Notes under the pieces: generated by a model
Databases searched by the model: none
Told to the model about the DNA's origin: nothing
Seen by the model: only the letters and a program-made list of their open reading frames with translations
Position numbers and translations under genes: made by a program
Assembly (NCBI GenBank): GCA_964437365.1
Contig: CAYTGM010000002.1
Coordinates: 130,212-194,211 of the forward strand
Direction of reading: 5' to 3'
Origin: an uncultured Candidatus Sumerlaeota bacterium
GTDB lineage: Bacteria; Sumerlaeota; Sumerlaeia; SLMS01
Length of the DNA stretch: 64,000 nucleotides
Shown here: piece after piece, positions 12,477-32,476 of the stretch
Layout: every line of letters starts with the position of its first letter
Numbering within the stretch: the stretch's first letter is position 1

Positions 12477-13643
12477 ATGCGTAAATGCCCCACATGCGGC
12501 TTTAATAATCCTGACTCGAGAGATCGCTGCGTCAAGTGTTCAACCGGACTGGTATCCATGAAGGCAGAGGAGCTCCCGAAGAAATCCAGGGTTCCTGCTG
12601 TTCAGCTCAATTTGTTTGGTATACTTCGCAGGAATCTCTACTTTCTTAAAGAAAAACTTCACTGGGAATTGCCCGACCGAGCACCTCATCGCTTTCCCTG
12701 GTCGGCCGCCTATCTCGCGTTAATTCCCGGAGGAGGTGCCGTCTATAACAAGCAACCCACTAAAGCCCTTGTCTATGGGTCTATCCAGGTTATGTCGATC
12801 GTTGCAGTGATTATAACGATCCTGCATCCCTGGAATAACTATATTCTTCTTATATCGTTGTTCTGGCATTTCTTCGCAATGGCAGATGCCTACTCAACCG
12901 CAGTGAAAATCAATGGGATGAACTGGAGCTGGAAGTCACTCTTGGCAGTCTGTTGCTCTTTCATCTTCCTTTTTTGTTCCAGTCTATTTTTCCTGCAGTT
13001 TTTCGGACAGGACTTCTTTCAGCTCGTCACTGTCAAAACACCGGCTCTTGCCCCAAAGATTCAGAAGGGAGACAAGTACTTTGTCTTGAAATGGCCTTTC
13101 GGCAAATCCTCCATAAAGCCAGGGAGTCTTGTCTATTATGATCCCCCCAGATTCGCTTATCATCGACCCGGTGCCCTCAGCACAGACACCTATTCTATAA
13201 ATGAAGAGAATTCATTTGGAGTGATTACGGCTCGGGAGGGAGATCTTGTATCCTGGGAAAGTCCCGAAACTGTAAAAGTCAATGAAGTGCTGATTTCACC
13301 CAATCGACTGCCTGTATACCCCGAGGGAATTCCGGGCAGGATGGAGTTCCGTATCCCCGAAGAACACTTTGCTATCATTTTCAGTCACAGTATCAGTGAA
13401 GGAGGGATTACTGGAGATATTCTAGAAAAAGTTGGCTTTGGGCAAACAAGCTTTAAAGTGACCCTTCCCAACCCTCGTCAGGCGCTGGCTGAGGGAATGT
13501 ACATGGAGCTTTATGATGAAGCGATTAAAGTCCATGAAGACGAGATCTATGGAGTCGTTCTTTTTAGATACTATCCCCCGGAAAGAAGGAAATGGTTTGG
13601 CACCTCATCGGGGCTATGGGAAGAATATCCTCCCTATAAATAA
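12477..13643 (+). CDS. Zinc-ribbon/membrane protein with C-terminal signal-peptidase-I-like (S26 fold) region, probably non-catalytic
   Basis: 388 aa. N-terminal CPTCG...CVKCS ribbon followed by 3-4 TM helices. The C-terminal region has spacing reminiscent of SPase I boxes (KIQKGDKYFVLK; GDLVSW...VKVNEV; IYGVVLFRYYPPERR) but lacks the SM(P)TL serine box. This call is tentative. Confidence 0.35.
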   Translation: MRKCPTCGFNNPDSRDRCVKCSTGLVSMKAEELPKKSRVPAVQLNLFGILRRNLYFLKEKLHWELPDRAPHRFPWSAAYLALIPGGGAVYNKQPTKALVYGSIQVMSIVAVIITILHPWNNYILLISLFWHFFAMADAYSTAVKINGMNWSWKSLLAVCCSFIFLFCSSLFFLQFFGQDFFQLVTVKTPALAPKIQKGDKYFVLKWPFGKSSIKPGSLVYYDPPRFAYHRPGALSTDTYSINEENSFGVITAREGDLVSWESPETVKVNEVLISPNRLPVYPEGIPGRMEFRIPEEHFAIIFSHSISEGGITGDILEKVGFGQTSFKVTLPNPRQALAEGMYMELYDEAIKVHEDEIYGVVLFRYYPPERRKWFGTSSGLWEEYPPYK

Positions 13644-13675
13644 TAACTATTTACCCCTGATTTGACACATAGAAT

Positions 13676-16558
13676 ATGAAAACGACAAAGAAAACGAAGT
13701 ACATTACCCTTATGAGGGAAGAATTTGGTGAAAGGTTTCTTGGAGATCATCTTTCCCGAGGAATCTTCAGTACGGACGCCAGTATATACATGCAAAAGCC
13801 TCATGGGATTCTCTATCCGAAGAACTCACATGAGGTCCGTAAAGCCGTCCAATTATCCCGGGAAAACAGTATCCCGATTCTTGTTCGAGGAGGCGGGACG
13901 AGTCTGGCAGGACAAACTACTGCCCGTGGGGCATTAGTCATTGATGTTAGCCGCTACATGAATCGTATCGGCCATCTTGATGCTGATGAAAAGACAATCA
14001 TCGTTGAACCGGGTGTTGTACGCGACGAGCTGAACCGGGCGATTGCCTCTGAAGGACTCATGTTTGCGCCAGAAACATCAACAAGTAACAGAGCAAACAT
14101 TGGTGGAATGATCGCCAATAATTCAAGCGGAATGATGTCTATACGATATGGCACAACCATCGACCATGTCGTCGCTCTTGAGGTCTTGTTGCCGAATGGA
14201 GAAATAGAGTGGGTTGGACCCCGCGATAGCATGACCGATCGTGGGAAAGCATGGCTCAACCAAACTGAGTCTCTGCTCAAGATGTACGAAGACCTGATCC
14301 TTGAGAAAACACCTGACGTCATCCGACGTGTTGGGGGATATACGGTAGATCGAATCCTTAATCAGGATAACCCTAATCTTGCAAGTCTCTTTGTAGGAAG
14401 TGAAGGCACGCTGGGGATCATCCTGAGAGCGAAGCTGAAGCTCGTTCCGCAACTTAAGGAAATAGCTCTCCTCGCCATTCACTTTAAATCTCTGGAGGAG
14501 TCTTTAAGAGCGGTTCCTGAAATGGTGAAGACAGATCCATTAAGTATCGAATTCATGGATCAGAAGCTTTTAAGGCTTTGTAAAACAAACCCTTCCACAA
14601 TGCATCTCATCAGTTGGCTGAAAGGTGATCCGGAAGCTGTTCTTGCCGTTGAGTTTGAACATGAGAAGAAGGATGTCGCTCAAGATAAAGCCATCCAACT
14701 GGAAACCCGTCTTAAAGAAGCGGGCTTCCACTTTCATTCGGAACGAGTATTTGAGCCTTGGCAACGGAAGGAAGTCCTTGAATCAAGAAAACTGGGGCTT
14801 GGGGTGATGTCCAGGGTCAAAGAAGATGCTAAGCCGATTAGTTTCATCGAAGATGCCTGCGTTCCAGTTGACAATCTTGCCGATTACGTCCGCGAGGTCT
14901 ATGAGGTTTTGGATAAAGAAAATGTGCCTGTTGTCACCTATGGGCATGCGAGTGTTGGTGTTTTGCATATAAAGCCTGCGCTCGACTTGAAAAAAACTCA
15001 TGACCGAAAAAAATGTCGCCGAATCAGTCGTCAGGTAATGGAAATATGCCGTAAATACAAAGGATCATGGTCTGGTGAGCATGGAGACGGTATTGCCAGA
15101 GGAGCCTACAACGAAGAATTCTGGGGTAAGGAAATGATCACCGTTTTTCGCTCCATAAAGAAACTGTATGATTCTGAGGGACTATTGAACCCCGGAAAGA
15201 TATACGACACACCATCACTGACGGGGCCATTGCGCTATACACAAGGTTATGAACAATCAAATTTGGAAACAGTATTCAAGTTTTCTGAAGAAGGAGACCT
15301 GCAGAAAGCGGTTGAAATGTGTAATGGAGTCGGTGCCTGCAGAAAAACGGGAAGCGGAACCATGTGTCCGAGCTACATGGCTACTCGTGATGAACGACAC
15401 TCCACTCGCGGAAGAGCAAACGCTCTAAGGCTAACGCTATCCGGGCAGTATGCAGGAGGGGATTTCTCCAGCCCCGAACTCTACAAAGTCTTGGATCTAT
15501 GCCTTGAATGCAAAGCGTGCAAGACAGAATGCCCCAATGCAGTGGACATGTCTAAGATGAAATCAGAATTTCTTCACCACTGGCATAAGAAGAACGGAGC
15601 AAAACTCAGGGAACGAGTCTTCGCGAATTCCCCTTTAACTGCCTCCCTTATTTCTGGACCTCTCGCCGAACTGAATAACAGGCTTCTTGCTCAACCGCTC
15701 ATAAAGAGATTGCTCTCAAGCTTTCTCGGTATAGCTCCGAAGAGGAATCTGCCGACTTATGCTTCAGAAAAGTTTGAAACCTGGTTTGTGAATGAAGGTA
15801 AAGCTGGGCAGCCATCAAAGCCCATCAGGACGATCGCACTATTTGCTGATACTTATATACGCTATCACGAGCCACAGCTGGGGAAGTGGGCGGTAAGAGT
15901 GCTTCAGTCTCTTGGCTATAAGGTTCTCCTGGCAAGGGCGGGGTGCTGTGGGCGCCCCTGGATCAGCAAGGGCTTTCTTGATAAGGCTGCAACTATTGCC
16001 GACAGTACGTTACGGGATCTTAGTCGATATGTGAATAAGGGAGTTCCAATTATCACCATCGAGCCAAGCTGTCACAGTTCTCTTCTTCAGGATCTGCCAG
16101 ATCTAAGCACTCTTGACTATTCAAAGGACAAAATGAATAGAGGTGTTTACAGCTTCGAAGACTTCATTGCAGCGCAAATCGACTCAGGCGAACTGACCCT
16201 TCAGGAAAATCTAAAAGGTACTTTCCTCTTTCACGGACATTGTCATCAAAAGAGCATGGGGTTGAATCGCGCTGTTCATCGTGTCTTCTCTTCAGCCGGT
16301 GAGAAGGTCACGTTGCAGGAAGTGGATTCTGGGTGTTGTGGGATGGCAGGGAGTTTTGGCTATGAGAAAGAGCACTATGAAATTTCGATGAAGCTTGCCA
16401 ATGACCGTCTTTTTCCAGCGATTGATGCTGCGGGTGATCATACAACGATCATTGCCAACGGGTTTTCTTGCAGGCATCAGATCAAGGATGGCCGTAACCG
16501 GGATGCGGTTCATGTCGCTGAGGCTTTGGGCAGAGCTCTTCAATTGCCAGATCCCTGA
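13676..16558 (+). CDS. FAD-linked oxidase fused to Fe-S/CCG-domain oxidoreductase (YdiJ / D-2-hydroxyacid dehydrogenase-like)
   Basis: 960 aa. PCMH-type FAD-binding motif ILVRGGGTSLAGQ. Two ferredoxin-like clusters (CNGVGACRKTGSGTMCP and CLECKACKTECP). Two CCG motifs (CCGRPW, CCGMAGSFG) of GlcF/GlpC type. Confidence 0.8.
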   Translation: MKTTKKTKYITLMREEFGERFLGDHLSRGIFSTDASIYMQKPHGILYPKNSHEVRKAVQLSRENSIPILVRGGGTSLAGQTTARGALVIDVSRYMNRIGHLDADEKTIIVEPGVVRDELNRAIASEGLMFAPETSTSNRANIGGMIANNSSGMMSIRYGTTIDHVVALEVLLPNGEIEWVGPRDSMTDRGKAWLNQTESLLKMYEDLILEKTPDVIRRVGGYTVDRILNQDNPNLASLFVGSEGTLGIILRAKLKLVPQLKEIALLAIHFKSLEESLRAVPEMVKTDPLSIEFMDQKLLRLCKTNPSTMHLISWLKGDPEAVLAVEFEHEKKDVAQDKAIQLETRLKEAGFHFHSERVFEPWQRKEVLESRKLGLGVMSRVKEDAKPISFIEDACVPVDNLADYVREVYEVLDKENVPVVTYGHASVGVLHIKPALDLKKTHDRKKCRRISRQVMEICRKYKGSWSGEHGDGIARGAYNEEFWGKEMITVFRSIKKLYDSEGLLNPGKIYDTPSLTGPLRYTQGYEQSNLETVFKFSEEGDLQKAVEMCNGVGACRKTGSGTMCPSYMATRDERHSTRGRANALRLTLSGQYAGGDFSSPELYKVLDLCLECKACKTECPNAVDMSKMKSEFLHHWHKKNGAKLRERVFANSPLTASLISGPLAELNNRLLAQPLIKRLLSSFLGIAPKRNLPTYASEKFETWFVNEGKAGQPSKPIRTIALFADTYIRYHEPQLGKWAVRVLQSLGYKVLLARAGCCGRPWISKGFLDKAATIADSTLRDLSRYVNKGVPIITIEPSCHSSLLQDLPDLSTLDYSKDKMNRGVYSFEDFIAAQIDSGELTLQENLKGTFLFHGHCHQKSMGLNRAVHRVFSSAGEKVTLQEVDSGCCGMAGSFGYEKEHYEISMKLANDRLFPAIDAAGDHTTIIANGFSCRHQIKDGRNRDAVHVAEALGRALQLPDP

Positions 16559-16741: not shown

Positions 16742-17488
16742 ATGCTTATGCTTCCCGAAGTAAGACTGCTCCTCGATATTCAGGAGATTGATAAAGAAAT
16801 CCTAGAACTAAAGGACCAGTTAGCTAATTATCCCACCATTTGGGAAGGGATCAAAAAGCAGACTGCTAAACGGAAGGATTCCCACGATAAAGCGCTGAAA
16901 GCGAAAGAACGGAATCAAAAAGATAGAAAACGTGTTGAGCAGAAAATTCGACTCTTCTCTGATGACCTCAAAAGGTCTCAGACACAGGCAGCAACTGTGA
17001 AGACGACAAAAGAGTACGAAGCCACAAATAAACAGACAGAAGCTCTCAAAGCAAAGCTCGCAGCGCTTGAAGAGCAGGGACTCGAACTTATTGAGAAAGA
17101 ACCTGAGCTAGATGCTGAGCTGAAAGAAACTGAGAAAGAGTTTCTCGAAGCTAAAGACCTTTACGATAGCGAAAAGACACGTATTCGTGAGCAGTTCAAC
17201 GAGAAGAAGTCTCGAGTAGATGAGCTCGAATCTGAAAAAGCAAAGATGATTGCAAAGATTCCACAGAAGGCTCTCGGAGCCTACGATCGACTCTTCAAAC
17301 GCCATCCCGGAAGTGTTATCGTTCATGTGCAGTCGGGAAGCTGTGGTGGATGCCACTTCGGACTACTGCCAAACGATCTCGTTCAGGTCCACCGTCAGGA
17401 ACGAGTTGTGCACTGCCCCAACTGCGGCCGAATTCTTTCTGAAGATGTAGACTACGTCCCTGAAGAAGAAGAGGCCTCTGCAGTTTAA
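16742..17488 (+). CDS. Coiled-coil protein with C-terminal C4 zinc ribbon (COG1579-like)
   Basis: 248 aa. Long charged coiled coil ending in CGGCHFGLLPNDL...HCPNCGRIL. Confidence 0.6.
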   Translation: MLMLPEVRLLLDIQEIDKEILELKDQLANYPTIWEGIKKQTAKRKDSHDKALKAKERNQKDRKRVEQKIRLFSDDLKRSQTQAATVKTTKEYEATNKQTEALKAKLAALEEQGLELIEKEPELDAELKETEKEFLEAKDLYDSEKTRIREQFNEKKSRVDELESEKAKMIAKIPQKALGAYDRLFKRHPGSVIVHVQSGSCGGCHFGLLPNDLVQVHRQERVVHCPNCGRILSEDVDYVPEEEEASAV

Positions 17489-17516: not shown

Positions 17517-18710
17517 ATGAACAGAACCCAGTTAAACTCGAAAAAAGCATTTCAGATTCGCCCTGCAAGTCGAACTCTTGCGGGGCCTTTATTATTATTG
17601 ATGGGTCTCCTCATAACGGGTTGCTCAACAATCACGATCCAATCGACGCCCCCAGGGGGAAAGATACTCTGGTCGGATAGTGGATACGATAATTGGCAAG
17701 AGTGGCCCCCGAACGGATGGACCATCGCTGGCGATACGGATCAAACACCATTCAAGAGTATTGGTATATATCGTAACGCCTATTTCATCACCGTAGAACA
17801 AGAAGGGTATATTCGTCCCTTGCCTCAGGTCGTTCAGCTCTACGCCTTTCGCAATGAAGACCTTAAATTTGAATTAACGGAGACACCAGAAACAACTGCA
17901 AGACGTATGAGAGAGAGTGGATTCGTCTACTATCAGGATGAGTGGGTTGATCCTGAAGTTGCAGGAGTTGTAGAGTATAAGGGCGAGGTGATGCCCCAGG
18001 AAGTTGCCTATACACTGCAAATGCGTGATAAAGGCTTTGTGCTTTATGAAGATGAATGGGTAACACCAGAAGAAGCTGAGAGAAGAGAAGTCGAAGACAA
18101 TGTCGCAAGAGGTCTGGTTCAGTTTCGCGGACGCTGGGTAACAGAATCACAAAAAGAAGAAGAAGAAAAGATTTCAGAACTTGTCCAGACTTTCTCAGAG
18201 ACCGAGGAAACAGCAGAATTACCTGCTCCCAGAATCGTTGGAAATATTGGCCTCAGAGCGGCGCAAGTTCAATTAAATAACAGTAGCCAGCAAAGAATTC
18301 AGTTCTATTTCGACGGCCCCGTATCGAGGTTCTATGAGTTGGACCCATATACTAGCCTTGGTGTATCCACAGATTCACGACTCATCATTCCAGAGGGCAG
18401 ATATGACATCGCCGTTGTTCCAACCGGGTTGGACTCTCTCGGACGTGATATACAGAAGAGTGAACAAATGGGTCTTTCCGATGATCAGGGTGAAGTGACG
18501 ACAAAGCCTCAATTTGGTTCATGGCCCCTCGCAGTCGGCAGGTTGTACAGCTTTACCTTCACAGGTGCCTCGGAAGCACTCCCAGAAGACATCAGTGAGT
18601 TTGAACTTCCCGACACGCAACTCGATATAGTCGTTCCAGAAATTAACGTTCCAGAAATTGAAAGAAAAGAACGACCTGAAAGAAGAGGCCGCCCGGGCTC
18701 GTGGCCATGA
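17517..18710 (+). CDS. Hypothetical lipoprotein with internal tandem repeats
   Basis: 397 aa. Lipobox LITGCS. Three ~40-aa repeats of G[FW]V.Y.DEWV.PE.A. Acidic and disordered C-terminus. Confidence 0.4.
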   Translation: MNRTQLNSKKAFQIRPASRTLAGPLLLLMGLLITGCSTITIQSTPPGGKILWSDSGYDNWQEWPPNGWTIAGDTDQTPFKSIGIYRNAYFITVEQEGYIRPLPQVVQLYAFRNEDLKFELTETPETTARRMRESGFVYYQDEWVDPEVAGVVEYKGEVMPQEVAYTLQMRDKGFVLYEDEWVTPEEAERREVEDNVARGLVQFRGRWVTESQKEEEEKISELVQTFSETEETAELPAPRIVGNIGLRAAQVQLNNSSQQRIQFYFDGPVSRFYELDPYTSLGVSTDSRLIIPEGRYDIAVVPTGLDSLGRDIQKSEQMGLSDDQGEVTTKPQFGSWPLAVGRLYSFTFTGASEALPEDISEFELPDTQLDIVVPEINVPEIERKERPERRGRPGSWP

Positions 18711-18732
18711 TAGTATTAATGAGGTTCTCGCC

Positions 18733-19443
18733 TTATTGATTCCCTTCCTTCATCAGGAAAAGCTTACGTGAGACTTCGATGATCGGAGGGTTCGAGACAG
18801 GGATTTTATCTGAACTTTCAGAAATAACGACCCCGGGCTGGATCTTCAGTTGATTAAAGAAAAGCTGAAGCGATTCGGGAGTTTCACGAGGTATATCAAA
18901 GTCTATATCGATTGCCACAGATTTGCCTCCCTCAATCTCGACTTTCTTTAAAAAATAGGATTCCGTTTCAACTCGCTCGATCACATTCCGTTCACCACGC
19001 GTATAAGCGGGCTTTAATCTCCGAGCAGGAAAATCCCTCGATGAGTTATCCCATCTTAAATTGACAGTTGAAGATCCTTTGGGAGTCTCAACCTGTTCAT
19101 ATTCACCAGCCTGTTGATTAAACCAGACGTATAGACTCTCTTCGGGAAGAGTGAAGAATAGCGAGTCTGTGTTCTCTGAATTATCGACCTCCAGAGTGAC
19201 CCTGTATAAGGCGTGATTCAATGGACCATGAGATACAAGACGTATTGCGGGTGAAGTCTCAAAATCAACTGGCTCAGGCATTGCACTCGTCACAATTGTC
19301 GAGGCTTCTCCCCCTCGGGCGCAGAAGATCATCAGGGCTGCTAGGACAAAGAATGATCTAAAATAACAAAATACTACAGACCGCATAGAACTTAAGGCTC
19401 CATCAATCAATCTGAACGGATTACAGCTTCTCCATGGTTTCAA
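18733..19443 (-). CDS. Hypothetical secreted protein
   Basis: 236 aa ORF with a hydrophobic N-terminus. No recognisable motif. Confidence 0.3.
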   Translation of the reverse strand: MKPWRSCNPFRLIDGALSSMRSVVFCYFRSFFVLAALMIFCARGGEASTIVTSAMPEPVDFETSPAIRLVSHGPLNHALYRVTLEVDNSENTDSLFFTLPEESLYVWFNQQAGEYEQVETPKGSSTVNLRWDNSSRDFPARRLKPAYTRGERNVIERVETESYFLKKVEIEGGKSVAIDIDFDIPRETPESLQLFFNQLKIQPGVVISESSDKIPVSNPPIIEVSRKLFLMKEGNQ

Positions 19444-20219
19444 CTCAATACCTTCCTTCTCTTTTTCTACTGCTTCTTATCTTTTCAGGCTGTTCCTACG
19501 ACAGAAGAGATCTGGTCCGCTATGACCTGATGGTACCCGGTACAGAAAAGGAAGTCCTGGATGTAGGAAAGGTTTTCACGGCAGGGGAGCATAAACTAAA
19601 CACCTATCAACGATATTTCAACGGAAACGACGACAAGTTGACAAGTCGGGTTTTAACGCGCTCACCTCAGCTCGATAATCGCTGGATCGCCCTGGACCAG
19701 GAAGGAGGCTTCATCTCGTTTCTTCTCGACGAAGATTTCCTTCAGATTCCCGCGGCAAAGAATGGTCGTCGTGAAAGCTTTATTCGCTTTGAACCGTACC
19801 TATCCTACTCACCAACAAGGATGACTCTGGGCGATACTCATGAATCAGCAGTAGATTTTGAAGTCTGGAATCAAGAAGAAAGCGGGCGAAGAACAGGAAA
19901 TCTCTCAATCAAGACTGTCTATACCGGAACGAATCCTATTGAACTTTCAGAACTTGGGACTCTGAATTGCCCCCGTATCGACTCAACGATTCTTCTTAAT
20001 CTGAGCTATGGACTTTCTGTCTCTGTAGAACAGAGCCAGTGGTTTCACGGACTCTATGGCGAGGTCCTTCAGGATGTTCAAGGGAACGTTGAGCTTCTTT
20101 CAGTACCACTTTACAAGTTCACGGCTAGACAGCAATTGATCAGTTCTGAACGAATCGATTCTGAAGAGGTGTTGAGAATCCTTCTGGAGAACAGGTTTTC
20201 AGAGACGCTCAATGATTAA
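19434..20219 (+). CDS. Hypothetical lipoprotein
   Basis: 261 aa. Lipobox-like LIFSGCS. No recognisable motif. Confidence 0.3.
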   Translation: MVSTQYLPSLFLLLLIFSGCSYDRRDLVRYDLMVPGTEKEVLDVGKVFTAGEHKLNTYQRYFNGNDDKLTSRVLTRSPQLDNRWIALDQEGGFISFLLDEDFLQIPAAKNGRRESFIRFEPYLSYSPTRMTLGDTHESAVDFEVWNQEESGRRTGNLSIKTVYTGTNPIELSELGTLNCPRIDSTILLNLSYGLSVSVEQSQWFHGLYGEVLQDVQGNVELLSVPLYKFTARQQLISSERIDSEEVLRILLENRFSETLND

Positions 20220-20227
20220 CCCATTCC

Positions 20228-21529
20228 TCAATCCACGAAATCCAGCGGAAGCCTTACACTGTCTTTCACAATAAAGCCTGCTTTCTGAAGTTCCCCCAAA
20301 GCAAGGGGAGTCAGCTTTCCCGTTGTCCAGAATTCCAGTCTCTCAACTCTGCTATCTAATTCCTTTTTCGCTTTTGCATATTCAACCATTTGCTGTGTTA
20401 CTGGTCCCCACTGGATAAAGTCGACGGGAGCTGCAAATAAGAGTGCTCCTGACTGGTTCAAGCCAACAGGGTACTTCTCGTATATAAAGACTTCTTGAAT
20501 ATGTTCAATTCTCTTCTCATACAAAGCCATCATCTCCATCACCTGTTGGAAGAAAAGAGCCTCTTCATAGCTCACAACTTCCGTCGCAGCCTGCAGACAC
20601 GCATGTGAGTTTACGGCTTCACTTATAACAAGAAAGCAGGCTGCTATAATTGAGAAATTTCGCGGTGTCAGGTGCGAGTGTCCGATGAATTCAAGACGCA
20701 GCTCTTCGGAAACCCCTTTCTCCAGAAGTTTTTCGTTCACCTGGTGCCTCAAGGTCGCGGGGGATGCCTGCTTAAGATAAGTGTCCAGCGTCTCCACGAA
20801 TCCAATCCCCTTCACAACCGAGAGAGCGAGCCCTCCCATAGGCATTGTGATCACACTTGGCGTCCAACCGCCCTCCGTTCTGGCATAGGCCAACCGGTTC
20901 AATTCTTTTTGCAAAACCAGGTTGTCCGAATAGACATCCACGTTCAATGCCATAGCCAGATCACGTTTATTTTTTGAAACAGAAAGCAAGCCTTCCATGT
21001 ATGTATCTTCATAGTTTGACCGTTCAGAATTGTAGGATATGATCGTTTGATTAATGCTAAGCTCTGCGCTGTTATACAGAGACTCGGCTGAATGGATCGG
21101 ATCGCTAAAAAGTAAACGGAGGCCTTCTATTGGGCCGTAGAGCGATTCCAGTAATTCGTCTGTGAACTCTTTGTAAACAGATTCTTCTCTCATCACGGCG
21201 ATGGCATTGATCTCTTCTATTCTGCGATTAGCCATCATGATCCCTATCGCTTCAAACTCTCCGAATTCACTATCGATTGTGAATCTCAGGAGAGGCCCCG
21301 TAATTTCCGCTTTTTCCCTCACCTCATGATTTGGCCCTTTCATTTGAAGCTTACTCAGAAAGTCGCTCGACTCAACGGTCCTGATGTTCTCGAAGCCCTC
21401 ATGGGTGAGCTCAGTATGAACCTGAGCCTTGTACAAAAGGGTACCTGTTCCATCTGATTCTCGGAAAGGGTGGGTGCAAGATGTCAGAAGGAATAAAACT
21501 GCCAGAAAATATGAGACTCTATGGATCAA
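20228..21529 (-). CDS. Hypothetical lipoprotein (weak TraB/GumN/Tiki-like hints)
   Basis: 433 aa. Lipobox LLTSC. A C-terminal EFIGHSHL and an N-terminal GTGTLLYK loosely recall the Tiki/TraB GxxH motifs. This is not a secure assignment. Confidence 0.3.
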   Translation of the reverse strand: MIHRVSYFLAVLFLLTSCTHPFRESDGTGTLLYKAQVHTELTHEGFENIRTVESSDFLSKLQMKGPNHEVREKAEITGPLLRFTIDSEFGEFEAIGIMMANRRIEEINAIAVMREESVYKEFTDELLESLYGPIEGLRLLFSDPIHSAESLYNSAELSINQTIISYNSERSNYEDTYMEGLLSVSKNKRDLAMALNVDVYSDNLVLQKELNRLAYARTEGGWTPSVITMPMGGLALSVVKGIGFVETLDTYLKQASPATLRHQVNEKLLEKGVSEELRLEFIGHSHLTPRNFSIIAACFLVISEAVNSHACLQAATEVVSYEEALFFQQVMEMMALYEKRIEHIQEVFIYEKYPVGLNQSGALLFAAPVDFIQWGPVTQQMVEYAKAKKELDSRVERLEFWTTGKLTPLALGELQKAGFIVKDSVRLPLDFVD

Positions 21530-21686
21530 ATATTCATACCGCTACTTTCTGAGATTATCGAACATTTCCAGTATTTTCTCGTATGTATATTCAGGCGAAG
21601 AAATAACGCAACTGTTTTGGTAGACATCACACGGGGTATCTGATTGATTCGCTGAACTTTGAATCCGCTGAATTGCTGACCAGTCC

Positions 21687-24329
21687 ATGCCCGCCCCCGT
21701 AGAAGGTTCCATCGATCACTATTTCTCTCAGGATGCTGCTCGAGTCTGCGCTGAGGAAATCGCCGAAGCGCAAGGGGTCGAAGTCTTCTTTATCTGTCGT
21801 CGGAATGAGGCAGGTCTCATCACTGAAGTTGAGTCTCATGCTTTCGGTACAAAGAATTGTGTTCCCGCCCTGATGCAACTGGCGCAGCCCGGAGAAGTGG
21901 TTGTCCATAATCATCCCTCAGGTCAGCTGATTCCATCAGATGCGGATATTGATATCGCCTCTCACCTTGGCAACATGGGCGTCGGATCGTTTATTATCGA
22001 TAATCAGGCTCATCGTTGTCGCATCATTGTCAAACCTCAAGACCCCAAAAAGAAGAAACGGGTCTCAGAAGAAAGTGTTGTTAAGAGACTATCTCCCAAA
22101 AGCGACCTTTCTAACATTGTCGATGATTTCGAGGACAGACCTCAGCAGCGCTCCATGGCTTCTCAAGTCGTATCCGCCCTCAATGATGACGGAATCAGCG
22201 TTATAGAGGCAGGCACTGGAACAGGAAAATCCTTTGCTTATCTGGTACCTGCAATCATCTTCGCCCTGGAAAATGGCGAGCGCGTCGTGATCAGCACGAA
22301 CACAATCAACCTTCAGGAGCAGCTCCTTCACAAAGATATACCGGCGCTCCGTAAGGCCATTGGCCGAGACTTCAGTGTCGAGATCGTGAAAGGGCGAAGC
22401 AATTATGTCTGCAAGCGGAAGGCTCAGTTTGCCGAGTCTGAAAACTCACTGATCCTCGATGATTTCCAGAAAGAACTCAAGGATGCCTTGGCGTGGGCCG
22501 GCTCTTCATCTACTGGTGATCTCCAGGAGCTCGCAGTCCCACCCCGTCGCGAAGTCTGGGAACGTCTTCAGAGTGAGAGTGATAATACACTGCGTGTTCG
22601 TTGTCCTTTCTATGAAGAATGTTTCTTCTATAATTCACGCCGACGTGCAGCGCGGGCAAACCTTCTCATCGTCAATCATTCACTCCTGCTAAGCGATCTG
22701 GCCATACGCCGCGCAACGGGGAACTATACAACTGCTGCCGTCCTTCCCCCCTATCAGTATGTGGTTATCGACGAGGCGCATAACCTCGAAGAATCCGCCG
22801 CTCGTAATTTAGCCCAGCAGGTCTCACGCTTCGGTGTTCGCCAGCTTTTTGGAAGACTCTACAAGCGTGATAAGAAAGAGGGCAAAGGCGTCTATGCTTC
22901 TCTGACTGTCGCCTGCGAAGAAGCGGTCTCCAAAGGATTCATCAACAGCGGTCATCCGATGATACAAAAACTGGTGCAGGAATTGATCCCTCGCGTTTCC
23001 GATATCCGTGACTCTCTTGACTTTCTTCTTCAGGATTTCATCAACCAGTTTTTGCGCCTTACAGACCATGCTTTTTCAAACGATTCGATGGAGAGCCAGA
23101 AGATTCGTCTGACCTGGAAGCTCAAGCAGCACCCAATCTGGGATGAAGAGTGTGAAGGAATTCTGCAAGGTTTCTCCAGAGAGATCAGTGCCTTTGTTGA
23201 TGAAAACCAGAAAGTCTTTGATCTTTCCCAGGATATCGATGACGAAGCGATGCGCATCCTTACAAATCCTCTGCTGGAGTGGAAATCTCTCATAGGGCGT
23301 CTAGACAGTTTGCGCCAGACAGTGCTTCGCTTCCTTTCCGAGGATAATGAGAACTGCCGTTGGATTGAAATCGTTCCGAAGCTGAAGGAAAAGAGAGAAG
23401 CTGTCGTTAAGCTTTGTCTATCACCAGTCGATGTCCGTGAGATTTTGCGAGAGTCTCTTCACGACAAAATGAAAGCAGAGGTTCTGACCAGCGCAACGCT
23501 TACTGTGGATCAGAAATTTGACTTCTTTAAGGAAAGAACCGGCCTCCCTTCAGTTTCTGTCAGCTCCGAAGCTCCTGTTGAATATGATGAAGAAGGCTTG
23601 CCTGTACATAGGCTGGAGCCTGTGGAAGCTCGCCCTGTATCAATGAATACTCTCGGAGCAGTCTTCGATTATTCTGAGCAGGTTTTCTTCGGCGTTCCAA
23701 AAGACCTTCCAGATCCCCGCGAGAAAGAGTTCGAGCAGGAGCTCGCTGAACTCATCAACCGATCTGTTGTGATTACCGGAGGAAGAGCGTTCGTCCTCTT
23801 TACCAGTTATGGACAATTGAACCGCGTCTATAACCTTTGTGCACCAGTTATTCAGCGTATTGGCGTACGCTGTCTGAAGCAGGGGAGCGAAAACCGCGAC
23901 GCGCTACTCAGAAGGTTTCGTGAAGATGAAACAAGTGTTCTCTTTGCGACGTCAAGTTTCTGGGAAGGTGTTGATGTGAAAGGGCGAGCGTTGGAGTTGC
24001 TGATCATTGCAAAGCTTCCCTTTTCAGTGCCTACAGAACCGGTTCAGGAAGCGCAGTTTGAGGCTCTCAAGGCGAAGGGGAGAGATCCCTTTCAGAACCT
24101 GGTAATTCCCCGAGCTATCATTCGATTCAAGCAGGGGTTTGGTCGCCTTATACGGTCACGTACGGACAGGGGAGCGGTTATTATTGCTGATAATCGTGTT
24201 GTTAAGGCCAATTATGGTCGACGGTTTATTCGATCGTTACCTGATATACAGGTGAGAGCAGCGCAGAGCGAGGAGCTGCTTAAACAAATGGAAGAGTTCT
24301 TTGAAAAGTCACCGACAGGGAAGTATTAA
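21687..24329 (+). CDS. dinG: RadC-like JAB/JAMM domain fused to DinG-family Fe-S DNA helicase
   Basis: 880 aa. Residues ~60-110 (VVVHNHPSGQLIPSDADIDIASHLGNMGVGSFIIDNQAH) match the RadC/JAMM H-x-H-x7-S-x2-D motif. Then Walker A EAGTGTGKSF, a Cys cluster (C-x..RCPFYEEC) and DEAH box VIDEAHNLEE of XPD/DinG helicases. An in-frame stop lies 18 nt upstream of the ATG, so the JAB region is the true N-terminus. Confidence 0.75.
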   Translation: MPAPVEGSIDHYFSQDAARVCAEEIAEAQGVEVFFICRRNEAGLITEVESHAFGTKNCVPALMQLAQPGEVVVHNHPSGQLIPSDADIDIASHLGNMGVGSFIIDNQAHRCRIIVKPQDPKKKKRVSEESVVKRLSPKSDLSNIVDDFEDRPQQRSMASQVVSALNDDGISVIEAGTGTGKSFAYLVPAIIFALENGERVVISTNTINLQEQLLHKDIPALRKAIGRDFSVEIVKGRSNYVCKRKAQFAESENSLILDDFQKELKDALAWAGSSSTGDLQELAVPPRREVWERLQSESDNTLRVRCPFYEECFFYNSRRRAARANLLIVNHSLLLSDLAIRRATGNYTTAAVLPPYQYVVIDEAHNLEESAARNLAQQVSRFGVRQLFGRLYKRDKKEGKGVYASLTVACEEAVSKGFINSGHPMIQKLVQELIPRVSDIRDSLDFLLQDFINQFLRLTDHAFSNDSMESQKIRLTWKLKQHPIWDEECEGILQGFSREISAFVDENQKVFDLSQDIDDEAMRILTNPLLEWKSLIGRLDSLRQTVLRFLSEDNENCRWIEIVPKLKEKREAVVKLCLSPVDVREILRESLHDKMKAEVLTSATLTVDQKFDFFKERTGLPSVSVSSEAPVEYDEEGLPVHRLEPVEARPVSMNTLGAVFDYSEQVFFGVPKDLPDPREKEFEQELAELINRSVVITGGRAFVLFTSYGQLNRVYNLCAPVIQRIGVRCLKQGSENRDALLRRFREDETSVLFATSSFWEGVDVKGRALELLIIAKLPFSVPTEPVQEAQFEALKAKGRDPFQNLVIPRAIIRFKQGFGRLIRSRTDRGAVIIADNRVVKANYGRRFIRSLPDIQVRAAQSEELLKQMEEFFEKSPTGKY

Positions 24330-24800
24330 GAGAACGCTACATATTCTGTTTCCTCTTCAGAGACATAGCCCTCGGAAAAGTCGATACCAGCGTCCTTTAA
24401 TAGTTCTATGAATTCATTGTAAGAATTATGGCGTTTGTGATGTTCCTTTTGATTTCTGATATATTCAACGACAGAGGTTTTGTCTCTGCGCGAGATTGTG
24501 AATGCACCATATTCTTTCTGCCAGCCTGTAAATAAAGGATAATCAGGATGATCCTTTAACCAGCGACTGGGAAGTGACCTTGAGATCTCTGACGAGATCT
24601 GACAATGCTATACGAGGATTTAAGGAGATGAGTAGGTGGACATGATCTTCCATCGTATTTATTCGATACAGATAGCATTTCTTGTTTTTTAGAAAACCCC
24701 ATATGTATCTAAAGAGTGTCTCCTGGATTTCAAGGGGCAGGGTGTTTTCACGATTCTTGGTTGAGAAAACGATATGGTAATAGATCTGTCTATAAGACAT
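24326..24800 (-). pseudogene. tnpA: IS200/IS605-family Y1 (HUH) transposase / RAYT-like gene, interrupted by a +1/-1 frameshift
   Basis: N-terminal part (from MSYRQIYYHIVFSTKNR through the HUH motif DHVHLLI) is in one frame and ends at 24543. The C-terminal part (WLKDHPDYPLFTGWQKEYGAF...VEYIRNQKEHH, with the catalytic Tyr) continues in the adjacent frame to a stop at 24326-24328. The two halves overlap near 24545-24560. The stop overlaps the dinG stop. Confidence 0.6.
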
Positions 24801-24921
24801 CGTGGTTGTTCTCTCGATTGGGTATGATCTGTTTGTCCGCAGGATGCGTGAGCGTGATTCGGGCGCAATATAATTGAAATCTGTTGGCCTTCGTCGAAGG
24901 CCTTTGTGTTGTGGCATTTGT

Positions 24922-24953
24922 CCCCAAGGCCCCAAGGCCCCAAAGCCCCAAGG
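24922..24953. repeat. Octamer microsatellite (CCCCAAGG)x4
   Basis: ccccaagg ccccaagg ccccaaag ccccaagg read directly, immediately adjacent to the left inverted repeat. Confidence 0.9.
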
Positions 24954-24980
24954 CTCGCTTCGCTCACCATGGGGCTATTC
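24954..24980. repeat. Left 27-bp inverted repeat (pairs with 25583..25609)
   Basis: ctcgcttcgctcaccatggggctattc. Its reverse complement matches gaatagccccgtggtgagcgcagcgaac at 25583-25609 (about 24 of 27 positions). Confidence 0.8.
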
Positions 24981-25039
24981 AAATTTACCCACCTTCGGCG
25001 GGATATATTGAATGAACCTACCCCGGACGATGTCCGGGG

Positions 25040-25487
25040 CTAAGATTTTTCCATCCCTGGCGGGATGTTCGGTTAGGTTTTCTGATGATTCTCTTCGATC
25101 GTTGAACGTTGTCGTTGTCAGCGCAGCGGTTGACGTTGTCGGCCGTTGCTCACGCCTCATACTAAGATTTTTCCATCCCTGCCGGGATGTTTGCTTAGGT
25201 ATTCTGATGATTCTCTTCGATCGTTGAACGTTGTCAGCGCAGCGGTTGACGTTGTCTGCAGTTGCTCACGTCTCATACTAAGATTTTACCACCCCTGCTG
25301 GGATGTTTGCTTAGGTATTCTGATGATTCTCTTCGATCGTTGAACGTTGTCGTTGTCAGCGCAGCGGTTGTCGTTGTGGGCCGTTGCTCACGCCTCATAC
25401 TAAGATTTTTCCATCCCTGCTGGGATGTTCGGTTAGGTATTCTGATGATTCTCTTTGATCGTTGAACGTTGTCGGCGGTTGTCAGCC
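25040..25487. repeat. Tandem array of four 116-122-bp direct repeats
   Basis: Units start with ctaagatttt at 25040, 25162, 25278 and 25400. They are more than 90% identical and differ by a 6-bp indel (gtcgtt). Each contains a conserved 6-bp-stem hairpin catccc-NNNN-gggatg. They are bounded by hairpins ccccggacgatgtccgggg (25021-25039) and cctcccgtagggagg (25561-25575). Confidence 0.9.
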
Positions 25488-25582
25488 AGTCGCCCTTGCT
25501 GTCTTTAAGACCTCCAGGATCCTCCTTTCTATTATCACTTCAAATCTCCACTCTCCAAATCCTCCCGTAGGGAGGTAAATGT

Positions 25583-25609
25583 GAATAGCCCCGTGGTGAG
25601 CGCAGCGAA
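25583..25609. repeat. Right 27-bp inverted repeat
   Basis: Partner of 24954..24980. See evidence there. Confidence 0.8.
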
Positions 25610-25652
25610 CCTCGGGGACAGATGACCAATCATTATCCGCCTCCGGCGGAGG

Positions 25653-25725: not shown

Positions 25726-27381
<1,656 letters not shown>

Positions 27382-28140: not shown

Positions 28141-28323
28141 TTACTTAACTTCGCGGTGAACCGTATGCTTCTTCAGGAAGGGGTTATACTTCTTAAGCTC
28201 AATGCGCTGAGTTGTATTCTTCTTATTCTTGATGCTGTAATAGCGTGACATACCCTTAACGCCTGATTCTTTCTGCTCAGTGCATTCGAGGATAACCTGA
28301 ACCCGGTTCTGTTTCTTTGCCAT
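28141..28323 (-). CDS. rpmG: 50S ribosomal protein L33
   Basis: 60 aa, starting at [16 protein letters not shown]...[21 protein letters not shown]. The annotated 141-aa ORF extends in-frame a further 81 codons upstream without a stop. That extension is judged non-coding leader. Confidence 0.75.
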
Positions 28324-29005
28324 GTTTCTATTCTCCTGAGCCGTCTGAACGGCGGTAATACCTGTAATTGAGGCGATCAGGGCACAGAGAAACCCCATCG
28401 CAAGGCCGCAAGAGGTTCTACAGCACCCCTCTCCTATGCAAGCCCTTTCTGCACGAAGAGTGGAAAAAAGGTGATCGCCGTTGGGCTCACATTCTTTGGT
28501 TCCAAGGTCGGTGACCCGCTGATCTGATCCTACAGGGAATTGGTGGTAAACATGAATATTCTTCATGCGTCATACTTCTCATCGCCGTCTGGCAACGCCG
28601 GTGTTCGTGATCCAGCCACTCGAAGATCACTTAAGAGTTGCGAGCCGTCAGGGCGGTAGAGCGCCAAACGGGGAAAGAAACGCGATGAGTTTTCCCAGGC
28701 CCCTACAGAGTTGATCTCGCGGCGATCCTGGACCTATCCAGGTCCGATGCCCATCGGACCTGCATCGCTCCGACATCGCTCCGGCATCGTCCCTGGAGGG
28801 GAAATGCCCAAAAATGACTAGGAGGGAGAACCGAAAGCGCCGCAGGCTCTGGGGTGCGGGGTTCTTGGTCACGCTTTGAAATTCGAAGTCTCGCCGCGAG
28901 CACCGAGTCTCGCTTCGAATCAGGTCGCAGAATGATCCCGATTCGAATCCAAAGGGGAGTACCTTGCGCGGCGGCATCCCGCCGCGCGAGGCAAAATATA
29001 TTACA

Positions 29006-32000
29006 TTAGAACTCTGTGACGTTCACACCTTTAAGAATTACCCCGATATGAGGGTTGTCTTGATCGAGTGAATCTTTTTCTACATAGAGATAATCGAAGG
29101 ATAGGTTTAGCGTGCTTCCTGACAAATCTTCAGGGCAGTTGAACCAGAGCTCATAGGTCAGATCTTCACCCAACACTGGAACTTGAGATTCCTGGTTTAC
29201 AGAATCAATATTGATCACATGGCCGATCTGACTTGTCGAATCATTAGCCCTGAGTCTGAAGGTTGGAACATTCATCCGCTCTTCCTCGGTGGCTGTGCTG
29301 CCTATGGTAAACTCGATCTTGTAGAGTTTACCGTCTATCAGCTCGATTCCAGTCTGCTTTGTCCAATAGCCGAAATAGAGAGGCTCTTCATAGGCTCGTT
29401 CACTCGAGGACGAACTTACCCCTTGAAGGAGAAGTCCGTTATCAGATGAGACGATTTGAGGAGCTGGGAGGTTGCCCGATTCGTCGTACCCATATGACCA
29501 TCCAAGGTTCTCACCATTGGATAAGTTCAGATCGTGATCCAATAAGCTATTACCGTCACTCAGGCGATTCAGCATTAAGTAATCTGTATAGAGATGATCG
29601 AGTGAGATTCTGCTCTCTGCAGCGTCCATCGGATCAACATTGAGAACTTCGAAGCTGAAGAAGTGCTCTAAAGGATTTTCAGCTAAAGGTATATATTGAG
29701 TATAAGCAGTCGGGTTCTGTGCTGGTGAGTTACGTCCGTTTCCAGAGGAAGAGATCACCATGAGATCACTTCTGGAAAAGTCGCTCTTCGATGAACGAAG
29801 GCGAACGGTTGGAACCTCACTTCGGTCCTCGACGGAGGATGATAGGCGCCAGTTTGCCGTCAACAAGACAGGATCTTCCGGAGATTCAATGTCTGCTAAA
29901 GGCGAGTCCCACATTCCAAATGTCAGGTTGTTGTCCTCTGTGTCTATCAGGAGAGACTCAAGTTCTGATGAATGAGAAAACTGGGGCGAAGTAAAGGGGT
30001 CAGGAGATAAGGACTCCCATCCATTCGTTTCGACAAAAGAGTTTGAATTATCTGTCTGTGCATACCAGGCGATCTTCTTATCTAAACGCGATGCAACAAT
30101 GATGTCTTCATCTCCATCAAGATTAAGGTCGCCTGAAAGTACAAAAGCTGGTGCATTAATACCTTCAAGATCAAGACCGATTTCCTCGAACCGAGGAACT
30201 ACCGTTTCAAGATTGTTCATTAAATAAATGATTGAATCACCTGGTGATTTTCGCTGTGGATACATAGTTAATAAGGCATCAGGATAGTTGTCATTATTTA
30301 AATCGGTAAGATGAAATCCAAAGACGTTGTTTAAATCAGATTTAATTACTCGTTCTTCTGAAAACATCACCTCTTGTTCCGTCGTTTGGTTTTCGAACCA
30401 AACGAGGCGATCAGGAGCTTCAAGAAGAATGACGATGTCCTTGTCACCGTCATTGTCCATATCTGAGAGTCTCAAATCAGAATCACCACGCATTGAAGCT
30501 TCGGCGATGATGTATTCACTAAAGCCTTCGACCTCATTGTCCAGGTTGTTCTCGAGCCAGAGTACTTCACCAAGTTCTTCATTGGCAGCCACGAAATCAG
30601 TATCCCCATCACCATCAAGATCGATTGACTCTATTGTGTGAACAGCTCCATTTGAAATCTCAATATCACTTTCCAGGAAGCTTTCTTCAGTAATTCCTAT
30701 ATTGTTCGTGTAGTAGAGTGTTTGTCTGGCACTTGGGTATGCGACAACAAGATCAGTTCTTCCATCCTGATTTAAATCTGCAGTTGTAATATCTTCTCCT
30801 GTCGATTCCGTAAACGTGATTCGTGTTTTTGTCGGAAAATGAGGCCCATCATTTGAAGATTGATTTTTTAACCAACTTAGTTCTCTAGAATCAGTTAGTG
30901 TTATAAGGTCCTGATTACCATCTCCGTCCAAATCGGAAAGAAAGAAGATGTTAAATCGAACGCCATATGGGTCCGTATATAACTCTTTTAATTTACTGAA
31001 CGAACTACCCTTGTCAGATATTTTGTTCTCAAACCAACCTATGCTATTCGCCCCAAATACGGAGATTAGATCTTCATCTCCATCTCCATCCAAATCCGCT
31101 AAGCTCCCCCTCACTTTGTAATTGAGGTTGGTATCAGGAATACTAATTAGATTGCCCATGCATATCAGAAATGTCTCTTCTGGAGCGACAGGCGATTTAT
31201 ACCATTTCAAGCTATCGGACAATAAATCATCCTTTCCATCACTATCTACATCAAGAGTTGCAAAAGTAGGGTTTAGCCTCTCTACATTGCATGGTAGCGA
31301 GAACTGCTGAAATTCAAGGCCTTCTCCAAAATCGGGTGTGGAAAGCGATATACTCGTCATTGATGTACCAACAGAGAAAATCAATTCCTTATTCATGTCA
31401 CCATCAATATCTACAAGGGCTTTTGAATCCAGAGTTTCTCCAGGTAGGCTCCTTACAAGATGAATTGGTTCAAAGTCTACGCTGTTAGCAATACCGTTAT
31501 TTCTTAGCAGATATACATCAGTACCAGGAATCCCACCGTAAACATCAAAGTTCACCAGAATGACATCATCATCACTATCATGGTCGATATCATCTATAAT
31601 AAATTTGGAACCATACCCAGATGTAAAGAAATTACCGGTAATATAAGACGAGCTCCAATCCCCAGACGCCTGCTCAGCAGCGGGATTAATTAGTGCATAG
31701 ACATTGATTCGCTCATCACCTTTAGCTGTATAAATGACATCCAGAAAACCGTCATTATTTAAATCTATGGAATCAGCTGCGAAAGGGACCACATCTTTCT
31801 TAATAACCGTCTTTTCGAAAAGGAGAGTCCCGGATTCTTTTTCGAATTTGAAATCTACCAAAAGGATCTCATCGGAAACATATGAATAAGCCAATAATTC
31901 GGCTTTTCCGTCCCCATACATATCCGAAAAACCATATATGCCCACTCCCTCATCTTCCAGTGGTCGGGGAGTAGAGAAACTAACATGCTTTTCTAGCATC

Positions 32001-32476
32001 TGATTCTCTATCCAAAAAAGACCTTCTATCCCGGTTCCGAGGATATCAAGATCATCATCCCCATCCAAGTCATAGGGAAAGGCCTTCCCATACGAATTAC
32101 CGCGCGAAAGATACTCCGGGCTTGTAAAAACTCCATCTGATTGAATCCGGTTTTCCATCCAGAGGAGATCACCACTACCAGGCAAACCAGGAGGGTTACG
32201 ATCAAGTCTGCTCGTTGCAAGAATATCTAAATCGCCATCCAAGTCGAAATCTGCTGCTTCTATTGTTTCAAAATTCAGATGAAACTCATCTGAGATAACA
32301 TCTCCGAAGCCGAATTGAATCGGCGGTTGAGCCATCAGGTTTCCCGGTAATGCTAAGAGCACGCTCCCGACGGAACTAATTGCAAGAGATTTAATTGTTT
32401 TGGATAGAAATGTAGATGCATATGCATCATGTTTGATAATTCGCATGAGGCTCCCCCCTCGTATAATTTGATCCAA
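29006..32476 (-). CDS. Giant secreted FG-GAP/VCBS-type repeat protein
   Basis: 1156 aa. Signal peptide. More than 10 Ca-binding-like D-x-D-x-DG-x-x-D loops (DLDGDGDEDLI, DVDSDGKDDLL, DIDHDSDDDVIL ...) typical of integrin-alpha/FG-GAP beta-propeller blades. Confidence 0.6.
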   Translation of the reverse strand: MDQIIRGGSLMRIIKHDAYASTFLSKTIKSLAISSVGSVLLALPGNLMAQPPIQFGFGDVISDEFHLNFETIEAADFDLDGDLDILATSRLDRNPPGLPGSGDLLWMENRIQSDGVFTSPEYLSRGNSYGKAFPYDLDGDDDLDILGTGIEGLFWIENQMLEKHVSFSTPRPLEDEGVGIYGFSDMYGDGKAELLAYSYVSDEILLVDFKFEKESGTLLFEKTVIKKDVVPFAADSIDLNNDGFLDVIYTAKGDERINVYALINPAAEQASGDWSSSYITGNFFTSGYGSKFIIDDIDHDSDDDVILVNFDVYGGIPGTDVYLLRNNGIANSVDFEPIHLVRSLPGETLDSKALVDIDGDMNKELIFSVGTSMTSISLSTPDFGEGLEFQQFSLPCNVERLNPTFATLDVDSDGKDDLLSDSLKWYKSPVAPEETFLICMGNLISIPDTNLNYKVRGSLADLDGDGDEDLISVFGANSIGWFENKISDKGSSFSKLKELYTDPYGVRFNIFFLSDLDGDGNQDLITLTDSRELSWLKNQSSNDGPHFPTKTRITFTESTGEDITTADLNQDGRTDLVVAYPSARQTLYYTNNIGITEESFLESDIEISNGAVHTIESIDLDGDGDTDFVAANEELGEVLWLENNLDNEVEGFSEYIIAEASMRGDSDLRLSDMDNDGDKDIVILLEAPDRLVWFENQTTEQEVMFSEERVIKSDLNNVFGFHLTDLNNDNYPDALLTMYPQRKSPGDSIIYLMNNLETVVPRFEEIGLDLEGINAPAFVLSGDLNLDGDEDIIVASRLDKKIAWYAQTDNSNSFVETNGWESLSPDPFTSPQFSHSSELESLLIDTEDNNLTFGMWDSPLADIESPEDPVLLTANWRLSSSVEDRSEVPTVRLRSSKSDFSRSDLMVISSSGNGRNSPAQNPTAYTQYIPLAENPLEHFFSFEVLNVDPMDAAESRISLDHLYTDYLMLNRLSDGNSLLDHDLNLSNGENLGWSYGYDESGNLPAPQIVSSDNGLLLQGVSSSSSERAYEEPLYFGYWTKQTGIELIDGKLYKIEFTIGSTATEEERMNVPTFRLRANDSTSQIGHVINIDSVNQESQVPVLGEDLTYELWFNCPEDLSGSTLNLSFDYLYVEKDSLDQDNPHIGVILKGVNVTEF

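Follow-up and report, generated by a model that had tools for sequence, protein, structure and literature searches.

We analysed a 64,000-nt stretch of DNA from an uncultured Candidatus Sumerlaeota bacterium (contig CAYTGM010000002.1, positions 130,212 to 194,211 of the forward strand), henceforth called the window. It carries a complete gene whose product joins an N-terminal RadC-type JAB/MPN+ domain to a DinG/YoaA-type helicase within a single open reading frame (ORF). ORFs without Pfam annotation precede the gene, and a transposase gene, a repeat element and groEL-groES follow it (Table 1). The fusion is real, was described before and is widespread, and the window gene is a new orthologue of a known family, the RadC-like DinG proteins.

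Domain architecture and conserved sites

The domain layout was derived from profile searches and structure prediction. The Pfam family RadC (PF04002) matches residues 32-97 with 27.3 bits (gathering cut-off 22.1), and DEAD (38.5 bits), DEAD_2 (24.5 bits) and Helicase_C_2 match the helicase part of the same 880-residue ORF. At E < 0.1, the N-terminal domain has a single sequence match in the PDB, namely the RadC homologue 2QLC. The predicted folds agree with these assignments. For the full-length AlphaFold2 (AF2) model, with a predicted local distance difference test score (pLDDT) of 90.6 and a predicted template modelling score (pTM) of 0.87, Foldseek reports E. coli DinG (6FWR, E 1.7e-40), S. 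aureus ExoDinG (9II8), XPD and CasDinG. The Arch-like insertion is a long helical stretch of this confident model, which aligns to DinG and XPD. A linker of about 30 residues connects the JAB domain to the helicase. An earlier note on this DNA had proposed both the RadC/JAMM motif and its one-frame fusion to a DinG-family helicase, and both are borne out here.

That note had also ruled out a longer N-terminus from the in-frame stop codon ahead of the ATG. The stop is indeed present, and since the homologues begin at the same position as the window protein (MPPPVEG...), its N-terminus is correctly placed. The assembly artefact that the note had named as an alternative source of the fusion is ruled out by the same contiguous architecture in more than 75 independent genomes.

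Next, we compared the helicase core with the NCBIfam models of characterised subgroups. The nearest model is YoaA with 552 bits (equivalog cut-off 680), followed by the Bacillus ExoDinG-type model PRK08074 (499 vs. 789), the E. coli-type DinG model PRK11747 (398 vs. 598) and TIGR01407, also ExoDinG-type (368 vs. 548). As the cut-offs of the YoaA, DinG and ExoDinG models are all missed, the window protein belongs to none of these and represents a separate subgroup.

Conservation was assessed on two samples, i.e., an alignment of n=121 sequences (the window protein and its 120 best homologues, 38-63% identical, nearly all of which cover 95% or more of the length) and a set of 78 genome-derived orthologues from species-representative genomes of many phyla. 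The window protein contains the zinc motif E-x(n)-H-x-H-x(7)-S-x(2)-D on an MPN fold, with E32, H74, H76, S84 and D87 intact. H74, H76, S84 and D87 are kept in each of the 77 genome-derived orthologues in which the domain is present, and the full EHHSD set is complete in 74/74 of those with a full N-terminus. The mean column identity is 52% in the JAB domain and 49-56% in the complete protein, such that the domain equals the helicase in conservation. The catalytic residues of both modules are under strong purifying selection. The N-terminal domain is a compact, well-folded, acidic JAB/MPN+ domain. It is acidic in every member of the family (mean net charge -4.8, pI 5.1), and its best structural neighbours are all isopeptidases (Rpn11, CSN5, PfJAMM1, AfJAMM, Cap3 and BilC; compare PMC11981726).

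Walker A motif, cysteine cluster and DEAH box had been listed in the earlier note as marks of the helicase. Walker A and DEAH stand and agree, together with the Helicase_C_2 and Foldseek matches, with the two RecA-like motor domains of DinG/XPD (Rad3) SF2 helicases. The cysteine cluster stands only in part: the family consensus places iron-sulphur (Fe-S) ligands CCCC at positions 242, 301, 306 and 312, while the window protein reads CTCC and thus has three cysteines, with Thr301 in place of the second. Among the 78 genome-derived orthologues, CCCC is found in 64, SCCC in 10, CSCC in 2 and CTCC in 2, such that three-cysteine variants make up about 18%. A review from 2025 counts such variants as possibly cluster-competent (PMC11981726). 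We rejected a sequencing error behind Thr301, given that its codon ACA differs from TGT/TGC at all three positions.

Table 1. Features of the RadC-like DinG gene and its surroundings (window coordinates; residue numbers refer to the 880-residue protein)
Feature	Position	Strand	Evidence or conservation
RadC-like DinG gene, complete (880 aa + stop)	21687..24329	+	ORF from ATG; domain matches; full-length AF2 model
In-frame TGA, 18 nt 5' of ATG, bounds N-terminus	21669..21671	+	
N-terminal JAB/MPN+ (RadC-type) domain, residues 1-116	21687..22034	+	
Glu32, upstream catalytic Glu of JAMM motif	21780..21782	+	E in 120/121 homologues (one gap); 74/74 complete genome-derived orthologues
JAMM zinc-site motif H74-N-H76-PSGQLIP-S84-DA-D87	21906..21947	+	H74, H76, S84, D87 invariant (121/121)
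Linker, residues 117-148, Lys-rich (KKKK), conserved P137	22035..22130	+	Alignment; helices 128-134 and 140-144 in AF2 model
DinG/YoaA-type superfamily 2 (SF2) helicase core, residues 149-880	22131..24326	+	NCBIfam and Foldseek
Walker A / motif I (AGTGTGKS, K181)	22209..22232	+	K181 invariant (121/121)
Fe-S ligand region, residues 242-312 (C242, T301, C306, C312)	22410..22622	+	
Thr301 replacing second Fe-S cysteine, codon ACA	22587..22589	+	T in 2/121 homologues
DEAH box (motif II), residues 362-365	22770..22781	+	D362/E363 invariant; H365 in 120/121
Arch-like helical insertion, ~residues 400-590 (boundaries approximate)	22884..23456	+	Long AF2 helices 424-459, 483-516, 519-550
Helicase_C_2 (motor domain 2), residues 694-852	23766..24242	+	Pfam PF13307, 152.8 bits
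C-terminal helix, residues 861-873, YoaA-like alpha7	24267..24305	+	Invariant Phe871; alignment and AF2 model
FAD-oxidase/CCG gene, upstream	13676-16558		
CT398-like zinc-ribbon gene, upstream	16742-17488		
Upstream ORF	17517-18710	+	No Pfam match
Upstream ORF	18733-19443	-	No Pfam match
Upstream ORF	19434-20219	+	No Pfam match
Upstream ORF	20228-21529	-	No Pfam match
IS200/IS605-family Y1 transposase gene	24326-24935	-	Single frameshift near 24545-24550
Inverted repeat, 59 nt	24946-25004 / 25559-25617		Arms 83% complementary
Tandem repeat, 122 bp x 3.6 copies	25040-25474		89% matches; bracketed by the 59-nt inverted repeat
groEL, beyond transposase gene and repeat element	25726-27357	-	
groES, downstream of groEL, then L33	27421-27717	-	

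Distribution of the RadC-like DinG family

The joining of a RadC-type JAB domain to DinG was reported in 2011 by Iyer, Zhang, Rogozin and Aravind (PMC3239186). The review of 2025 names the subgroup 'RadC-like DinG', gives Desulfuromonas soudanensis as an example, notes the C-terminal helix and reports that the hosts are without HolC (PMC11981726). Searches of the literature for experiments on RadC-like DinG or on the biochemistry of RadC turned up only these two comparative papers.

We counted orthologues by a pattern scan over one genome per GTDB species. Near-full-length orthologues are found in at least 594 species-representative genomes from about ten phylum-level groups. Within the best 80 of these relatives, all but two span the query from a start within ~30 residues of its N-terminus to about residue 875. 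Their sources are Geobacteraceae/Desulfuromonadales, Sumerlaeota, KSB1, Hydrogenedentota, Gemmatimonadota/Longimicrobiales, Brocadiaceae, Deferribacteres, Spirochaetes/Treponematales, Bacillota, Fusobacteria and Terriglobia; Planctomycetota are also counted among the carriers of RadC-like DinG. Identity to the window protein declines with taxonomic distance, i.e., from 53-63% in Sumerlaeota via about 41% in Desulfuromonadales to about 37% in Gemmatimonadota, which speaks for vertical inheritance. A look-up of the exact window protein gave no record, and its best database match is 63% identical.

A word-index search with the N-terminal domain alone returned zero candidates and was replaced by a profile search against 1.84 billion cluster representatives (50% identity clusters). 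With E <= 1e-3, 1,359 clusters match, and 187 of them reach E <= 1e-30. Of the 150 best matches, roughly half have a length of 800-930 residues; the others are short, carry the domain at their N-terminus or close to it and most likely represent fragments from contig edges. Judged by these matches, the N-terminal domain forms a subfamily of its own, whose members sit almost exclusively at the start of proteins of DinG length. The idea that a JAB module is an uncommon DinG partner, as voiced in the earlier note, is at odds with the description from 2011 and with the genome and cluster counts given above.

The present instance adds a further uncultured lineage to the known range of this architecture, along with a three-cysteine Fe-S variant; the family is widespread and strictly conserves its catalytic residues.

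Genomic neighbourhood

The four ORFs directly upstream lie on alternating strands, and 3/4 encode lipobox-like signal peptides (LITGC, IFSGC, LLTSC), consistent with the block of lipoprotein genes reported before. In a related Sumerlaeota contig, L086, the FAD-oxidase/CCG gene and CT398 likewise lie upstream of the orthologue, together with two unknown ORFs. These two unannotated ORFs occupy the position equivalent to window ORFs 17517-21529. The 157-bp spacer directly upstream of the window gene holds no convincing sigma-70 site on the + strand, and a LexA-type palindrome was not found in it, only a CGAAC-like half-site.

On the downstream side, groEL-groES follow the orthologue after about 125 bp in the related Sumerlaeota contig L084, and then an unannotated ORF and L33. 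In L081, likewise a related Sumerlaeota contig, the stretch between the orthologue and groEL-groES contains a HipA toxin-antitoxin pair, two ORFs without annotation and a sigma factor. Because groEL directly follows the orthologue in L084, we consider the transposase gene and the repeat element of the window a later local insertion into the dinG-groEL spacer. They provide no evidence about the function of the gene.

We also clustered the neighbours of 77 orthologues. This revealed only within-clade synteny, mostly in Gemmatimonadota, and no partner gene conserved across phyla among these loci. The Geoalkalibacter orthologue, for instance, lies in a different, housekeeping neighbourhood. The GC content of the window gene is like that of its flanks. 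A tblastn search with the first 150 residues gave no match in 72,556 PLSDB plasmids or 50,697 INPHARED phage records. None of the four tested upstream neighbours (0/4) matches a PADLOC defence model, and the window protein itself matches only generic DinG-core models therein (type IV CRISPR DinG, 418 bits); the Csf4 model cas_csf4 (TIGR03117) reaches 121 bits vs. a cut-off of 400. The only nearby repeat has a period of 122 bp and is not CRISPR-like. The gene stands alone among housekeeping genes and is chromosomally inherited.

A tblastn search of the window protein against the window found no second DinG or RadC within the 64 kb. The only other match of the JAB region (63332-63535, E 3.1) is spurious, as it lies antisense within a DUF445 gene. 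This DUF445 gene (62033-63592) and the subsequent Zincin_1 gene (63597-63965), both on the - strand, are about 38 kb away from the window dinG. In L086, the genes immediately downstream of the RadC-DinG orthologue (13012-15524) encode a DUF445 protein and a TPR/Zincin_1 protein. The displacement suggests a rearrangement between the two lineages.

The degenerate transposase and the adjoining repeat of the earlier note were both recovered, the former as a Y1 gene with one frameshift. While ORF 24543-24935 alone covers only positions 2-80 of the 121 of the Y1_Tnp profile, the joined frames (159 residues) match the whole profile (90.8 bits) as well as NCBIfam transpos_IS200 (73 bits vs. a cut-off of 55). 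When the alignment is read by eye, both the HUH motif (HVHLL) and the tyrosine region (YIRNQ) are present. The transposase gene converges on dinG, and the stop codons of the two share bases within TTAA at 24326-24329. The microsatellite CCCCAAGG x4 (24922-24954) is located directly upstream of the transposase start and overlaps the left arm of the inverted repeat. The repeat element as a whole (24946-25617) separates the transposase remnant from groEL, and the corresponding spacer of L084 lacks it. Neither the core of the inverted-repeat arm nor that of the tandem repeat has another copy within the window, and an Rfam scan of the whole window yielded no family at gathering threshold. The element could be transposase-associated or similar to a miniature inverted-repeat transposable element (MITE).

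Further downstream, ribosomal protein L33 matches only the last ~52 residues of a 141-residue ORF (28141-28566, - strand). The true rpmG is thus probably the short 3' part of an over-extended ORF. An FG-GAP/VCBS-repeat protein of 1156 residues is encoded at 29006-32476 (- strand), where the GC content drops to 0.40 (30001-32000) vs. about 0.47-0.49 elsewhere in the window. A similar giant FG-GAP gene is found near the orthologue of L085.

Possible roles of the JAB domain and relation to known systems

We estimate a probability of about 0.8 that the window gene is orthologous to the known RadC-like DinG genes and encodes a single-polypeptide, chromosomally inherited genome-maintenance enzyme. 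The combined hydrolase-helicase activity suggested in the earlier note is a reasonable inference because the catalytic residues are intact in both modules, and the fusion is probably bifunctional. By analogy with DinG and YoaA, the helicase would load on single-stranded DNA (ssDNA) at gaps or stalled forks and translocate 5'->3', and the tethered JAB domain would hydrolyse whatever blocks or terminates that DNA.

As to the nature of this hydrolysis, we lean, tentatively and at somewhat below even odds, towards a zinc metallopeptidase whose targets would be proteins or peptides that are attached to the DNA being cleared or bind it tightly. The leaning follows from the exclusively isopeptidase structural neighbours, from the acidic character of the domain and from the record of JAMM enzymes, since to our knowledge every biochemically characterised JAB/MPN+ enzyme with a JAMM motif is an (iso)peptidase. 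Somewhat less probable, though still a serious possibility, is a role as metal-dependent nuclease or nucleotide hydrolase, in which the domain would trim the DNA ends or blocked 3' termini that the helicase exposes. In this case, the JAB domain would have taken the place of the DnaQ-type 3'-5' exonuclease of ExoDinG without being homologous to it, as proposed by Iyer et al. in 2011, who inferred a nuclease-like role from this displacement and described RadC-JAB DinGs as close kin of the exonuclease-fused DinGs (PMC3239186). The high scores of the core on the ExoDinG-type models PRK08074 and TIGR01407 are in line with their proposal, and among solved proteins S. aureus ExoDinG is one of the closest in both sequence and structure; the acidity of the domain throughout the family speaks against it. 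Several considerations count, in turn, against the peptidase picture. The other partners of RadC JAB domains, i.e., helix-hairpin-helix (HhH), primase and ArdC modules, favour together with DinG and the ExoDinG parallel a nucleic-acid substrate (PMC3239186). An acidic net charge is weak evidence, given that nuclease active sites are acidic as well. The peptidase role is putative, and the literature searched contains no assay of a family member or of RadC. Finally, the window orthologue lacks one Fe-S ligand, and its helicase activity is thus not guaranteed.

Two further explanations fare worse. The JAB domain may be a non-catalytic protein-interaction or regulatory module, which would for instance recruit the protein to the replisome in the absence of HolC or autoinhibit the motor. 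The lack of HolC in the hosts (PMC11981726) fits such an adaptor, and the pTM of the model suggests that the JAB domain is packed in a fixed position on the helicase. Still, we regard it as unlikely: the five catalytic/zinc residues are invariant across phyla at 37-63% identity, which is unexpected for a pure scaffold, and inactive MPN- domains have lost the JAMM residues. Iyer et al. noted a loss of zinc ligands only in some fusobacterial members (PMC3239186). The least probable explanation by far, and one that is largely refuted, is the accessory or defence locus envisaged in the earlier note, i.e., a helicase-hydrolase within a mobile or anti-phage island. It could draw on the transposase gene and repeat that abut the 3' end of the gene, on the four upstream neighbours without Pfam annotation and on the PADLOC type IV CRISPR DinG models that match the helicase core. 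These matches cover, however, the generic DinG core only, with cas_csf4 far below its cut-off, and none of the upstream neighbours matches PADLOC. The order of genes is shared with L086 upstream and with L084 and L081 downstream, where groEL directly after the L084 orthologue marks the transposase and repeat as inserted later. Orthologue loci elsewhere show within-clade synteny only. Moreover, the GC content is unremarkable and the N-terminal domain is absent from the plasmid and phage collections.

If the JAB domain is a peptidase, RadC-like DinG might serve as a one-polypeptide clearance system for DNA-protein crosslinks or protein roadblocks, a specific version that we consider doubtful. 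Here, the 5'->3' Fe-S helicase would drive into or unfold a protein adduct on ssDNA, which the tethered JAB zinc peptidase would then cleave. In eukaryotes, FANCJ, a helicase of the DinG/XPD family, is paired with the protease SPRTN. If true, the bacterial protein would be an analogue of this pair and would provide the first biochemical function of a RadC-type JAB domain. Whichever chemistry applies, the fusion physically links a RadC-type JAB domain to a DNA motor and is for this reason probably the cleanest handle on the role of RadC, i.e., nuclease vs. peptidase.

Among known systems, the window protein shares most with the RadC-like DinG subgroup: the N-terminal RadC-type JAB domain with its E, H, H and D residues, a YoaA-like core of motor domain 1 (MD1), FeS, Arch and motor domain 2 (MD2), and the C-terminal helix. 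It is 41-42% identical over 98-99% of the length to the Desulfuromonadales members (Geoalkalibacter, Desulfuromonas) and differs in its Sumerlaeota origin and its CTCC ligands. YoaA, the DinG paralogue of E. coli and partner of HolC/chi, provides the best NCBIfam model, and the review finds the core of RadC-like DinG, including the C-terminal helix, to resemble it (PMC11981726). YoaA has, however, no N-terminal JAB domain, and the window protein stays below its cut-off. Canonical RadC/YicR (UPF0758; JAB domain in 2QLC) has in common the HNHPSG...PS..D signature and the JAB fold. Its N-terminal HhH/UPF0758 part is absent from the window protein, and the cut-offs of the RadC equivalog models are missed by far (NF000642, 23.8 vs. 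180 bits; TIGR00608, 19.2 vs. 133.9 bits); only the JAB domain matches.

E. coli DinG (6FWR) is the best structural match of the full-length model (TMt 0.72), but lacks a JAB domain and is 23% identical. The cysteine spacing 301-306-312 (5 and 6 residues) of the window protein fits that of C194-C199-C205 in E. coli DinG. From the type IV CRISPR CasDinG (Csf4), the window protein is set apart by its low Csf4 score and by upstream neighbours without PADLOC match. The ExoDinG of Bacillus and Staphylococcus, which carries a DnaQ-like 3'-5' exonuclease (PDB 8ZEF/9II8), is the closest solved sequence (E 6.3e-48) and has the same layout, with a hydrolase domain ahead of the DinG core. The N-terminal folds are nevertheless unrelated, i.e., RNase H-like in ExoDinG and a deaminase-like JAB domain in the window protein.

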